NCBI GenBank assembly: GCA_016182185.1
Contig: JACOXU010000001.1
Coordinates: forward strand, 402,915 to 466,914
From: Candidatus Levyibacteriota bacterium
GTDB lineage: Bacteria > Patescibacteriota > Microgenomatia > Levybacterales > UBA12049
Direction: 5' to 3'
DNA: 64,000 bases
Shown: piece after piece, positions 4,618 through 21,244 of the stretch
Layout of the letters: the number at the start of each line of letters is the position of its first letter
Numbering within the stretch: the first letter of the stretch is position 1
Notes under the pieces: generated by a model
The model's input: only the letters and a program-made list of their open reading frames with translations
Told to the model about the DNA's origin: nothing
Databases searched by the model: none
Made by a program: the position numbers and the translations under genes

Positions 4618-5401
4618 ATGCAGTATAGCTTCGCAAACCCCTCTGCCAAAAATATTTCACCGTAAAGTAAGTTATAAAAACCCAAAAATTTGCCATAATA
4701 AGACCTGAAAAGATTTCAGGAAAACTTAATTGTCCAAGATAAATCTTAAGCGGAAAATATAAAAGATACGTAAAAGGAAGAAATTTCAATATTGAAAAAA
4801 TAAATGATGGAAGAATATCAAGCGGAAACAAAGAGCCCGCAAAGAACCCAAGAAGAGTTATAAAAATAAATCTAGGCGCCCAAACCTCAGGACTCCAAAA
4901 CCCGATAAGTCCTAAGAGAAAATTAATAAAAAAATAAAGAAAAAGAGAGGAAATAATTGAGAAAATAAAAAACAAAAGATAAAAAAAATTGGTCTGAATA
5001 AAGATTGGTGGTTTAAGAATTATAAAGATCAATGTTAACTCAAATATTGAAAAACAGATATTCATTGCCTTGTCTCCAATATCTTTTGAAAACCAATACA
5101 AAAAATAATTGACAGGCTTAAGTAGAAAATTCATTAAATTTCCGCTGTTTATCTCTTCTCCGATTATGTAAGTCCTTGAAGAAAGTACAATTGAATCCAT
5201 AAGTGATGTTCCTAAAATATAGGTAAGCATGAATGATTGGCTATATCCCAAGATATTTTTTCCAGGAGGCAAAACTACCAGCCAAAGAAAATAAATAGTC
5301 AGAAGCTGAATAGTATTTCTTACCCGCCACATCACAAAACTTGCTCTGTATGTGAAGGCTTCATCCCACGTATTTCTAGCAATAATATAATACTTTTTCA
5401 T
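4607..5401 (-). CDS. ABC-2 type transporter permease
   Basis: A 264-aa polytopic membrane protein. It overlaps the ATPase gene by 4 nt. Confidence 0.55.
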   Translation of the reverse strand: MKKYYIIARNTWDEAFTYRASFVMWRVRNTIQLLTIYFLWLVVLPPGKNILGYSQSFMLTYILGTSLMDSIVLSSRTYIIGEEINSGNLMNFLLKPVNYFLYWFSKDIGDKAMNICFSIFELTLIFIILKPPIFIQTNFFYLLFFIFSIISSLFLYFFINFLLGLIGFWSPEVWAPRFIFITLLGFFAGSLFPLDILPSFIFSILKFLPFTYLLYFPLKIYLGQLSFPEIFSGLIMANFWVFITYFTVKYFWQRGLRSYTAYGR

Positions 5402-6592: not shown

Positions 6593-6865
6593 TTATCTGA
6601 CTGCCTTTTTAAGTGTCTTTCCAGGAGTAAAACCAGGGGCTTTTCTTGATGCGATTGTAATTTTTTCTCCTGTCTTTGGATTTCTTCCTACTCTCTCCAC
6701 TCTGTTTCTTATACTAAAGGTACCAAAACCTGTAATTACAACTTTTTCTCCTCGCTTTAGTGAATCGCGAATAGATCCGACAAATGCCTGAACTGCATCT
6801 CTTGCTGCTTTATTTGTAAGATTTGCTTTTTTAGCTACGATCTCGATAAGATCTCTTTTGGTCAA
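6593..6865 (-). CDS. hup: DNA-binding protein HU
   Basis: The sequence is MTKRDLIEIVAKKANLT...GFGTFSIRNRVERVGRNPKTGEKI, a classical HU/IHF fold. The start is a TTG preceded by GGTGGTGA. Confidence 0.9.
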   Translation of the reverse strand: MTKRDLIEIVAKKANLTNKAARDAVQAFVGSIRDSLKRGEKVVITGFGTFSIRNRVERVGRNPKTGEKITIASRKAPGFTPGKTLKKAVR

Positions 6866-6937: not shown

Positions 6938-6967
6938 ATATATCAAAAGAGAGCAAAATAAAGAATT

Positions 6968-7078
6968 GCGCGGGGAGTTTCTAAAATTTTCAATCTGAAC
7001 ATTTACGTAATATGATTGCTTTTCTAAAACACGCTTCTCGCGTTGTGAAGATGAAAATTTTTGGAAACGACCTCAGCG
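6968..7078. repeat. Palindromic repeat element, copy 1 (intergenic, rny 3' side)
   Basis: Nucleotide identity to 20791-20908 inside map is about 75%. Shared blocks are gcgcggggag, aaaatttt and cgacctcagcgt. The terminal inverted repeats are GTTTCtAAAATTTTCAatc and gatGAAAATTTTTGGAAAC. Translation is broken by stops, so this copy is non-coding. Confidence 0.55.
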
Positions 7079-7088
7079 TTCTCAAAAA

Positions 7089-8354
7089 TTAGTTTTCAGA
7101 CTGAGAGGAAATTGCACGAAACTCGCGAATTGCTGTAACTTTCACCTCTCCCGGAACTGCAAGAGAGCTGCTTACTTCATCTCGTATCTTATGAGCAATC
7201 AGTGTAGTTTGGGAGTCATCTAGTTTTCCCGGATCAATAATAACGCGTAGCTCTCTTCCTGCCTCAAAAGCATATGCATCCTCAACGCCCTCATATTTCT
7301 TGGCAATTTCTTCCATATCTTTAAGTCTTACTGCGTATTCCTCTACGTCCTCGTACCTTGCGCCGGGCCTTGCTCCCGAAATTGCATCAGCGATATAAAC
7401 TATAACTGATTCAATTGAGGAAAATGGCTTATCTTCATGATGTTCAAGCACGCAATTTATGACCTCCTCGGGCATACTAAACCTTTTGAGAAGTTCTGCT
7501 CCAAGTTTGACGTGACTTCCGTCTCCCTCAACAACTTTACCGACATCATGAAACAAACAGCCAAGCCTTACGATATTTACATTTGCTCCTAATTCATGAG
7601 CAATATGTATCCCTATTTTTGTTTCTTCCAAAGTATGAACAACTAAGTTTTGTCCGTATGAAGTTCTGAATTTAAATCTACCTAGAATTGATAATAAATC
7701 TTTTGGAAGATTAAAAACTCCCACTTCGTGAGCAAGTTTTTCGCCCTCCTCAAACATTATCTTTTCTACTTCTTTTCTAGTTTGTTCGACAATCTCCTCA
7801 ATTCTGAATGGCTGTATTCTTGTATCTTTTATTAATTTTTCCAAAGATCTTCTTGCGACCTCTCGCCTTATCTGATCAAAAGAAGAAAGTCTGATTACGC
7901 CTTCCTCATCTAGATCAACATCGACGCCTGTTGCTTGTTCAAATGCGCGGATATTTCGTCCTTCTTTTCCAATAATTCTTCCCTTTAAGTCTTCATCAGG
8001 AATTTTCACCACCGACACCGTGTATTCTGCTATGTAGTTGAGGGCGCCGTGGCGCATGCTGTCGATTAATATTTCCTGCGCTTTTTTATCTGCCGTTCTT
8101 TTTGCCTCTTCTTCTCTCTCTTTAATAATACGCGCAGCTGCTTTGGCTTCTTGCTGTTCTACTTCTTTTAATAATTCCTGTCTGGCCTCATCTCTCGTCA
8201 AAGAAGAGATTTTCGATAATTTATCCTTGTATTCTTCTTTAAGTCTTGCAAGATTTTCTTTTTCCTTTTCAATATTTTCTTCCCGTTCGAGAAGTTTTTT
8301 CTCAAGTTTTATAAGATCTGGACTCTGTGCTGCCATAAAATTATACGAGGACAA
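7089..8354 (-). CDS. rny: Ribonuclease Y
   Basis: N-terminal coiled coil, KH domain (GRIIGKEGRNIRAFE), and HD domain (HSLEVAH-like, CLFHDVGK). The ORF-track start is a TTG at 8354; an in-frame ATG at 8336 (MAAQSPDL) is the alternative start. Confidence 0.85.
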   Translation of the reverse strand: MSSYNFMAAQSPDLIKLEKKLLEREENIEKEKENLARLKEEYKDKLSKISSLTRDEARQELLKEVEQQEAKAAARIIKEREEEAKRTADKKAQEILIDSMRHGALNYIAEYTVSVVKIPDEDLKGRIIGKEGRNIRAFEQATGVDVDLDEEGVIRLSSFDQIRREVARRSLEKLIKDTRIQPFRIEEIVEQTRKEVEKIMFEEGEKLAHEVGVFNLPKDLLSILGRFKFRTSYGQNLVVHTLEETKIGIHIAHELGANVNIVRLGCLFHDVGKVVEGDGSHVKLGAELLKRFSMPEEVINCVLEHHEDKPFSSIESVIVYIADAISGARPGARYEDVEEYAVRLKDMEEIAKKYEGVEDAYAFEAGRELRVIIDPGKLDDSQTTLIAHKIRDEVSSSLAVPGEVKVTAIREFRAISSQSEN

Positions 8355-20377: not shown

Positions 20378-21244
20378 CTATTTTGTCAAAATTACTGGCC
20401 CTTCTTTTGTGATAGCAATCGTTCTTTCAAAAAGACCTGAGATACTGCCGTCAGCTGTTTTAATTGTCCAGTTATCGTCCCTCGAAAGAATCACATCGCT
20501 TTTACCCATATTGTAAATTGCTTCAATTGCGATGGCCATCCCTTCAGAAAGTAAAGGTGTTTTGGCAACTTTTGATGTAAGAAATCCTGGAATTTCAGGC
20601 TCCTCATGTAGCTTTTTGCCTACTCCATGCCCAACGAGCGATCTAACCACGGAATAACCTTTACTCTCTATAATATTTTGAATTGTTTCTGAAATATTTC
20701 CAACTCTATTTCCTACCTTTGCCACCTTAATTGCTTCTCCGAGTGCTTTCTTTCCAGTCTGTAAAAATGTAATAAGTAAATCATAATTTTGGCGCGGGGA
20801 GCTTGCAAAATTTTTGCTGTGAGCATTTGCGCTAACTACCTTCTTGCTTTTCAAACCAAGATCACCCGCTTTGTGAACACGAAAATTTTCGGAAGCGACC
20901 TCAGCGTCAACTATTATTGTCTCTGCCATATCTGTATGAAATCCTTTGAAAAAAACTCCACAATCGATACCGACAATATCCCCATTTTTAAACTTATAAT
21001 TTGTTGGTATTCCATGAACAACCGCATTGTTTGTTGAGACACAAATTGAATATTTATAACCCTCGACTTTCTTAAAACCAGGTTCTGCGCCTTTTGATCT
21101 TATTAATTTTTCTGCCAGCTTATCAATCTCAATCTCAGAAACGCCTGGCTTAATATTTTGAAGAAGCTCAGATAAAACAGAGGCTAAAATTTCACCACCC
21201 TGCCTCATTTTTTTTATTTCTTCCTTGGATTTTAAATTAATCAT
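20378..21244 (-). CDS. map: Methionine aminopeptidase type 1, with an insertion of about 40 aa encoded by a repeat element
   Basis: Pita-bread fold motifs are present (GHGVG; metal ligands D, D, H, E, E). Confidence 0.9.
   Translation of the reverse strand: MINLKSKEEIKKMRQGGEILASVLSELLQNIKPGVSEIEIDKLAEKLIRSKGAEPGFKKVEGYKYSICVSTNNAVVHGIPTNYKFKNGDIVGIDCGVFFKGFHTDMAETIIVDAEVASENFRVHKAGDLGLKSKKVVSANAHSKNFASSPRQNYDLLITFLQTGKKALGEAIKVAKVGNRVGNISETIQNIIESKGYSVVRSLVGHGVGKKLHEEPEIPGFLTSKVAKTPLLSEGMAIAIEAIYNMGKSDVILSRDDNWTIKTADGSISGLFERTIAITKEGPVILTK
20791..20908. repeat. Palindromic repeat element, copy 2 (in-frame inside map)
   Basis: Nucleotide identity to 6968-7078 is about 75%. The terminal inverted repeats are GCTTGCAAAATTTTTG and CGAAAATTTTCGGAAGC. 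It encodes the two similar half-peptides ASENFRVHKAG and AHSKNFASSPR. Confidence 0.55.

Follow-up and report, generated by a model that had tools for sequence, protein, structure and literature searches.

A ~115-bp hairpin repeat in-frame in the methionine aminopeptidase gene of a Candidatus Levybacteria genome

The map gene, its insert and a second copy nearby

The DNA analysed here, called the window, is a stretch of 64,000 nucleotides (G+C = 37%) from contig JACOXU010000001.1 of a Candidatus Levybacteria genome (assembly GCA_016182185.1), a member of the candidate phyla radiation (CPR, or Patescibacteria). The subject is a repeat element that lies in the gene map. This gene (20378..21244, minus strand) encodes a type I methionine aminopeptidase (MAP) of 288 amino acids, which belongs to PF00557 and scores 249 bits with TIGR00500, the equivalog model of the type I enzyme (MetAP), well above the cutoff of 171. 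The TIGR00500 match is split by an insert into residues 2–118 and 163–288, and the Pfam and NCBIfam searches likewise return two stretches. Close homologues that are insert-free have about 250–259 residues. By translation, the codons of D113–Q152 occupy 20789..20908 on the minus strand, and the peptide encoded by the element itself is A114–R151, 38 residues long (AEVASENFRVHKAGDLGLKSKKVVSANAHSKNFASSPR). In the predicted translation the peptides across the two junctions of element and MAP are IIVDAEVASENFR and NFASSPRQNYDLLITFLQTGK. An identical MAP protein is found in an NCBI record under Candidatus Levybacteria and in independent assemblies from three sequencing runs.

The structure of MAP was modelled with AlphaFold (AF2) from an alignment of 120 sequences. 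The core of the model is confident, with 191 residues at a predicted local distance difference test (pLDDT) score of at least 90. Residues 116–148 have pLDDT <50 and no secondary structure, and they lie between a strand (102–111) and a helix (150–174). The top Foldseek matches are solved type I MetAPs, with template modelling scores of 0.93–0.94 when normalized by the targets of ~249 residues and 0.81 by the 288-residue query. Asp-94, Asp-105, His-206, Glu-241 and Glu-273 fall in invariant alignment columns, and from a comparison with E. coli MetAP we presume that they bind the metal. The insert is thus modelled as a disordered loop outside the core, between the two halves of an intact pita-bread fold.

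The element in map, copy A, lies at 20791..20908, antisense to the gene and in-frame, with the plus strand as its better-folding top strand. It matches the profile of the family with 103–123 bits and was aligned with 50 other copies. As RNA, the plus strand of copy A folds with −35.2 kcal/mol (z = −2.2), compared with z = +0.7 for the minus strand. A second, non-genic copy, copy B, lies at 6967..7080 on the plus strand, in the spacer between the genes of RNase Y and an HU-type DNA-binding protein, and is antisense to both. It starts 9 nt after the stop codon of RNase Y and folds, on the plus strand, with −33.2 kcal/mol (z = −4.1). The two copies are 77% identical over 117 bp (blastn, E = 1.4e-12). 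No third copy was found within the 64-kb window by nhmmer.

Anatomy of the element and its hairpin

An alignment of 51 good copies gives a consensus that begins with the terminus (G/A)GCGCGGGGAG, a variable arm of 5 nt and AAAATTTT, usually followed by CG. After a variable centre of ~65 nt come GAAAATTTT(C/T)G, a complementary arm of 4–5 nt and the terminus CGACCTCAGCGC(C/T), and the length of the element ranges over 111–119 nt. Copy A extends from (G)GCGCGGGGAG to CGACCTCAGCG(T/C)(C). Read on the plus strand, its left terminus, GGCGCGGGGAG (20791..20801), is near-invariant in the 51 copies and pairs with the right terminus; its minus strand encodes the ...SSPR end of the peptide. The variable left arm, CTTGC (20802..20806), co-varies with 20891–20895, and the alignment columns in question (12–16 and 106–110) have 4–6 pair types each. 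Box 1, the self-complementary AAAATTTT (20807..20814), is invariant in almost all copies. The variable centre of the hairpin (20815..20880) is poorly conserved and defines the subfamilies. Box 2, GAAAATTTT (20881..20889), is invariant and was part of the genome-scan pattern. The right terminus, CGACCTCAGCGTC (20896..20908), encodes (G/D)AEV when read on the minus strand. Of 43 metagenome copies, 27 have it in exact form and another 8 in near-exact form, though it was absent from the pattern that selected them. The ends of the element are of the type GGCGCGGGGAG...CTCAGCGCC.

The ends pair into a single stem of 23 base pairs, with the terminal inverted repeats GGCGC...GCGCC. Standard pairs make up 97.6% of the stem cells, compared with 92.3% in shuffles, and 57 cells carry a double change, where shuffles give 17.4 ± 3.3 and none of 500 reaches 57. 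When the 3′ partner is slid by one to three columns, pairing drops to ≤56%. The arm pairs include CTTTC/GGAAG, CCCGC/GTGGG, CTGGC/GTCAG, CTAAC/GTTGG and GGAAT/ATTCC. The mismatches on the top strand are G·U rather than A·C, 59 to 6 with one invariant G·U column left out, and 20 to 1 in the non-genic copies alone. The top strand is the more stable one in all 51 copies, by 8–10 kcal/mol. The hairpin is maintained, and its pairing is strand-specific. In genic copies the mRNA sense is the weaker-folding strand, so that the weaker of the two hairpins is the one in the mRNA. A form of the top strand that is single-stranded is what the G·U bias points to. From what is known of replication-linked skew, the GC skew of the window and the orientation of its genes imply that C-to-T damage of the sense strand would yield the opposite bias.

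These results bear out most of a preliminary description of the locus, made from the sequence of the window. The extra MAP peptide of ~40 residues is as quoted there, with the element accounting for A114–R151. The recurrence of 20791–20908 in an intergenic region, given as 6968–7078 with ~75% identity, has the slightly wider limits and higher identity reported above, and the listed blocks are common to both copies, their order unchanged. The inverted repeats hold up as well, as parts of a single long, imperfect stem. The description had noted two similar halves in the peptide, and S(E/K)NF is indeed repeated because each arm holds the self-complementary box GAAAATTTTC. Of the checks suggested, folding gave a hairpin with the top strand as the better-folding one, and modelling placed the insert in a predicted disordered loop with the core intact.

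A dispersed family of copies

What other genes and genomes carry the element? Collections were scanned with two independent patterns. The right-arm pattern, applied to one genome per species, gave 22 loci; the left arm with both boxes, applied to metagenome contigs, gave 48. Both scans demand exact matches to conserved parts, so diverged subfamilies are under-sampled. A profile search of the collected DNA then yielded 75 full-length copies, 66 of them unique. The named carrier records are mostly Levybacteria/Levyibacteriota, Microgenomates or 'Patescibacteria group', and the family belongs to Levybacteria and related Microgenomates of the CPR. Groundwater and sediment are among the sources of samples that carry it, for example Hainich, Rifle and SRR12113430-type samples. 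Some carrier records are labelled Gammaproteobacteria or Saccharimonadales, and these labels are doubtful.

With genic defined as lying inside an open reading frame (ORF) of at least 100 aa, 34 unique copies are genic and about 30 are non-genic. All 34 genic copies run antisense to the better-folding strand and are read in the same frame, F1, with the peptide GAEVAsENFRVh...aHSENFeSSPR. By Pfam they occupy 13 host families: MAP, DprA, topoisomerase I (TopA), FolC/Mur-type ligase, GT4 glycosyltransferase, PRPP synthetase (Prs), WecG/TagA, tRNA-guanine transglycosylase (TGT), IF-2, DnaX, RluA-type pseudouridine synthase, LeuRS and, with a weak match, a DHH-family protein. The insert is flanked on both sides by Pfam domains and in GT4, FolC, IF-2 and Prs lies between two domains. 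F1 is open in 79% of copies and encodes a hydrophilic peptide (mean Kyte–Doolittle −0.70). The other frames are open in 0–33% of copies (three of them in 27–33%) and are hydrophobic or cysteine-rich, and no gene identifiable by Pfam uses them. ORFs of 146–302 aa in three loci (L049, L055, L066), which have the opposite orientation relative to the element, have no Pfam match and were not counted as genic.

The non-genic copies typically start 4–65 nt after a stop codon. They are antisense to their neighbours in 35 cases and otherwise oriented in 15. Most are broken in F1 by stops or frameshifts; in copy B, F1 is interrupted by two stops.

Filled and empty sites can be compared directly. The RNase Y–HU spacer that is filled in the window is empty in the syntenic locus of GCA_023379505.1 (L004). 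The closest MAP relative, L081, is 78% identical to the window in the DNA of the MAP core; it has a MAP loop of 20 aa and no element anywhere in 17.8 kb. L004, which does carry the element in MAP, is 71% identical in the core. The relationships among the copies do not follow those of the hosts. Copy A is closest to a FolC copy (L013) and a LeuRS copy (L072), at 86% each, and is 75% and 64% identical to the MAP copies of L004 and L005. The MAP copy of L004 in turn shares 91% identity with a GT4 copy. In the window MAP, the right junction (SSPR followed by QNYDLLITF) is offset by 3–4 codons from that in other carriers (SSPH followed by REIQKF). The preliminary description had suggested a comparison of map orthologues; several do share the insert, but with different element subfamilies and offset junctions, and the nearest relatives are without it. 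A single ancient insertion into MAP was rejected in view of this subfamily discordance, the offset junctions and the closer relatives that lack the insert. Either repeated insertion into a few permissive linkers or homogenization by gene conversion within genomes is needed to explain the pattern.

Copies in one genome can be alike across different genes, as in L010/L017 and L024/L026 and, less closely, in L021/L028. Copies on the same contig are only 66–83% identical, so the family is old, with no hint of a recent burst. Two MAPs (P0024, P0075) have partial inserts, which are products of decay. There are also two mini forms. One, of 41 nt with a single AAAATTTT box, lies at 5073–5112 of L018. 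The other, in L070 (minus strand, ~7891–7928 in reverse-complement coordinates), is a 37-nt GC hairpin that lies in-frame in Prs (GAEVAPPGRGSPRP), and its peptide is also found as a remnant in MAPs P0012 and P0016.

The same MAP loop holds other inserts. Two MAPs of other Levybacteria (L078:82-954 and L079:73-951) have unrelated inserts of ~100 nt there, which form hairpins (z = −3.2 and −3.9), and the one in L078 is flanked by a 20-nt direct repeat, CGTCAAATCTCAAATCTCAA. A further MAP (L080:3001-3852, from CAYZEE01) has another insert, which is rich in G+C and does not form a hairpin. KSQISNLKSQ, the common 'empty' loop, is itself a heptanucleotide repeat, (CAAATCT)n. The MAP loop seems to be a hot spot of a general kind, possibly one that other families of elements use too.

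Searches of wider collections returned little. Rfam gave no match to the element at the gathering score or at E = 10. NCBIfam and Pfam gave none at E up to 10 for the four frames of the element that are sometimes open, in an NCBIfam release for which the presence of RPE (Rickettsia palindromic element) models is unverified. Phage and plasmid collections and viral contigs gave no match, and so lend no support to a viral or plasmid vector. An exhaustive HMMER search of 1.84 billion cluster representatives gave four matches, which shows the peptide to be rare; the representatives, at 50% identity, are mostly without the insert, so this is not a count. A peptide profile run against an index of 5.8 billion proteins gave two matches among 130 candidates scored, the word index being unsuited to a 40-aa query, so this is not a count either.

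Explanations of the insert and comparison with known repeats

How did this DNA come to lie in map? The insert is very probably one copy of a dispersed, non-autonomous family of hairpin repeats of ~115 bp, which persists between genes or in-frame in housekeeping genes. We suggest that the element is a selfish repeat whose insertions would survive only where the harm is small. One tolerated place would be intergenic DNA, typically just after a stop codon. The other would be coding DNA in one orientation and frame, where the element would add a hydrophilic, flexible loop of ~38 aa at a domain boundary, and the host protein could still work since the loop falls at that boundary. Purifying selection would remove insertions in all other frames and orientations, and the repeat may spread via a single-stranded intermediate of the top strand. 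From the sequences we infer that the insert is translated, and that it is tolerated without being of use. Translation, and not excision, is indicated because all 34 genic copies keep the host frame free of stops despite their differing centres and lengths, and non-genic copies do not.

Several observations weigh against this reading. Mobility is deduced from the distribution of copies and was not seen directly. Among 65 copies, no target-site duplication of 3–7 nt rises above chance at any offset; there are no TA termini and no TA or other target motif in the flanks, which show only a partly complementary base at −1/+1. No partner transposase turned up, although the window ORFs, which resemble housekeeping genes by their N-termini and operon context, were not all screened for transposases. 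The modest identity of copies on the same contig gives no sign of recent activity. Gene conversion could account for the resemblance of same-genome copies as well as transposition. The density of roughly one copy per 30–80 kb is an extrapolation from the window and from second copies in fetched loci. Because of the ORF threshold, insertions that destroy a gene would be counted as non-genic. Finally, a model of a purely selfish element in double-stranded DNA gives the strand-specific fold no clear role.

A homologous insert at about the same place in six MAP orthologues, together with the variation in length of the MAP loop across Levybacteria, might instead reflect an ordinary lineage-specific loop that arose in place and was inherited vertically, its likeness to 6968–7078 being coincidental. 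This has almost no chance of being correct, as the same DNA is present in 12 other gene families and at about 30 non-genic sites, the second window copy matches at E = 1e-12, and the nearest MAP relatives have no insert. The similarity on which the preliminary description relied survives proper alignment, and the insert does occur elsewhere in the genomes. A stable hairpin with conserved ends could also belong to an intervening sequence, like an intron or intein, that is removed from the mRNA or protein and absent from mature MAP, and unusual insertions are reported from the rRNA genes of CPR bacteria. However, excised sequence would need neither the frame nor the freedom from stops that 34 of 34 genic copies keep. 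There is no match to a ribozyme or intron family even at E = 10, 38 residues are far too few for an intein, and the mRNA-sense strand folds more weakly. An intron or intein was rejected in view of the in-frame, stop-free state of every genic copy, and removal from mRNA or protein is extremely improbable. A selected peptide module, such as a shared interaction or targeting motif recruited by housekeeping proteins, with the palindrome incidental, would explain the single frame and orientation of every genic copy and the conserved peptide ends GAEV..ENF and ENF.SSPR. It is nonetheless very unlikely: the ends are also conserved in non-genic copies with stops, which places the conservation at the DNA level, and the arms co-vary as base pairs and not as residues. 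The peptide is modelled as disordered, its centre is hypervariable, no protein family matches it, and filled and empty sites occur in one protein family.

The terminal inverted repeats, the length of ~115 bp, the many dispersed copies and the arms that co-vary by subfamily are also traits of a classical MITE (miniature inverted-repeat transposable element), a deletion derivative of an insertion sequence that is moved in trans by a DDE transposase recognizing its terminal repeats in double-stranded DNA. Such traits fit bacterial MITEs (PMC2229807, PMC10969869). In 578 kb of collected DNA, a search for a longer element that has these ends gave only solo termini, at chance level, and the two mini forms. 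The lack of target-site duplications at any offset, of TA ends or another target motif and of a partner insertion sequence in this DNA argues against a classical DDE-type MITE, and recognition of double-stranded DNA does not predict mismatches biased to G·T on one strand. We regard this origin as improbable. The better fold of the top strand in 51 of 51 copies and a G·U bias that extends to non-genic copies raise another alternative, namely that a functional single-stranded molecule of the top strand is the primary entity, either an antisense or trans-acting RNA that pairs with carrier mRNAs or a structured single-stranded DNA site, and that the coding insertions are secondary. Conservation of the termini reaches far past the host genes, and the non-genic copies lean antisense to their neighbours, 35 to 15. 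On the other side, no conserved promoter or terminator was found in the flanks of the element, Rfam has no match, and the non-genic copies decay; this alternative appears unlikely. An integron attC site was considered for the strand-specific imperfect palindrome. Sites of that class have a GTTRRRY core in a cassette context; the element has neither core nor context, and attC was rejected.

Rather than a passive inverted-repeat transposon, the element may be a hairpin that acts in a strand-specific manner, in the form of single-stranded DNA or of RNA produced from the strand that lies antisense to the host genes; we regard this reading as improbable. Two versions of it would fit. In one, the element would spread by an undescribed route that leaves no target-site duplication, landing or surviving in the linker-coding parts of essential genes. 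In the other, transcripts of non-genic copies would pair with all carrier mRNAs. Such pairing would place MAP, IF-2, DnaX, TopA, Prs, LeuRS and others in one post-transcriptional network.

The closest known parallel is the RPE, with which the preliminary description had compared the insert. RPE-1 to RPE-10 (Ogata et al. 2000, 2002) are described as repeats of 105–146 bp with a long stem-loop and terminal inverted repeats (PMC2229807, PMC10969869, PMC3767692). Their one open frame is joined to conserved genes in places exposed to solvent, orthologues have them in matching positions, the status of their target-site duplications is unresolved, and insertion hot spots have been a subject of debate (PMC2229807, PMC3767692, PMC10969869). 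The element resembles them as a palindromic repeat of 100–150 bp that forms a single long stem-loop and is scattered through small genomes, in intergenic DNA as well as in-frame in conserved housekeeping genes. It also shares the one conserved open frame, the exposed insert positions and orthologues that often carry it at the same site, and neither has a known transposase. The exposed, fold-compatible position is what the AF2 model of MAP predicts, and the interdomain position in GT4, FolC, IF-2 and Prs is consistent with it. The two differ in that there is no sequence similarity and the host is a CPR bacterium, far from Rickettsiales. The strict use of one frame and orientation, the strand-specific G·U fold and the covariation of the arms are unstated in the RPE accounts cited here. 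In addition, the relationships among copies of the element cut across host orthology, and it has mini derivatives of 37–41 nt. For an RPE-bearing guanylate kinase, translation and enzyme activity were demonstrated (cited in PMC2229807); for MAP with its insert, both are predicted from the intact frame and the invariant columns at the presumed metal-ligand residues. The comparison thus stands for the functional features covered here, supported by the 13 host families, the intergenic copies, the filled and empty sites, the covariation and the modelled disordered loop, and falls as far as homology is concerned. In its behaviour the element is RPE-like, in its sequence it has no relation to RPEs, and it is analogous, not homologous.

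Other small repeats share some of these traits. The Wolbachia palindromic elements (Ogata et al. 2005, cited in PMC3767692) are likewise protein-coding palindromic repeats in a reduced genome of another lineage. The intragenic MITEs ERIC, the 107-bp Correia/NEMIS element and the Coxiella QMITE are also small repeats that form hairpins, and their open frames are in some cases joined in-frame to host ORFs (PMC2229807, PMC10969869, PMC5896051). These usually have TA termini and target-site duplications and are mainly intergenic, whereas the element has no duplication and about half of its copies are genic, in core enzymes. Measured against MITEs in general, it has the terminal inverted repeats but lacks the target-site duplication, often TA. 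REP/BIME repeats with RAYT transposases and MITEs derived from IS200/IS605 are likewise strand-specific hairpins with no target-site duplication and with single-stranded DNA as a plausible substrate. REPs (repetitive extragenic palindromes) are 20–40 bp long and extragenic, with GTAG or CGTC heads (PMC3733652). The element, at ~115 bp, half genic and with the ends GCGCGGGGAG and CGACCTCAGCGC, does not belong to them. IS200/IS605 elements insert beside a fixed target of 4–5 nt and have separate hairpins near each end. The absence of target-site duplications fits such elements, but the flanks of the element have no conserved motif, and separate end hairpins are not seen.

A full-text search of the literature turned up no earlier account of elements like this in CPR, Patescibacteria or Levybacteria, in line with the preliminary description, which was not aware of them as a known feature of this kind of genome. 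A 2024 review of MITEs names no comparably frequent case outside Rickettsia and only speculates about other prokaryotes (PMC10969869). The RPEs, with their Wolbachia relatives, are the outstanding example, in the literature searched, of a repeat that lies in-frame in many essential genes, and the element is a second, unrelated case, which suggests that small genomes see this happen repeatedly. The CPR bacteria, whose reduced genomes measure roughly 1 Mb, are of a lineage very different from Rickettsia. The covariation, the subfamilies, the mini forms, the strand-specific fold and the sites found both filled and empty make the family richer for analysis than the cited RPE accounts. It is a concrete source for the length variation and 'extra loops' of CPR proteins, and its insertion sites mark permissive places in essential enzymes that may be of use in engineering.

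The element also affects annotation, through the names of carrier MAPs and through intergenic copies called as genes of 52 aa. NCBI gives the name 'M24 family metallopeptidase' to the four named MAPs whose loop holds a long insert; two are carriers (P0001, P0002) and two have unrelated inserts (P0033, P0092). Insert-free orthologues are mostly named 'type I methionyl aminopeptidase', and the insert seems to push MAPs below the equivalog naming rule. Two non-genic copies (P0121, P0122) are annotated as stand-alone ORFs of 52 aa (MIMKYEKNAEVASENFRVHNAGKLGLKNKKSEGANAHSENFESSPRKKIYHE), which are probably over-predicted genes. The metagenome-assembled genome CAYZEE01 (L014, L080) is labelled 'uncultured Gammaproteobacteria', yet it has a Levybacteria-type ribosomal operon and the element in topA, and its label is probably wrong. 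The same doubt holds for CAYPAU01 (L022) and possibly for the 'Saccharimonadales' assembly DATIIG01 (L010, L017).

The neighbours of copy B, both on the minus strand, are the RNase Y gene upstream (7089..8354; Pfam RNase_Y_N, KH_1 and HD) and the HU gene downstream (6593..6865; Pfam Bac_DNA_binding). A promoter-like sequence between copy B and the HU gene is also conserved in L004. In that genome (L004:320-1349), ribosomal protein L2 appears as two ORFs of 163 and 81 aa, both with L2 domains, followed by a 92-aa ORF with no Pfam match. A frameshift could be the cause, as could an error of assembly or a further intervening sequence. Neither bacterial type of RNase P RNA was reported in the window; the sole RNase P RNA match there is to the archaeal model RF00373, at 2392–2697 on the minus strand, with 86.5 bits against a gathering score of 84.

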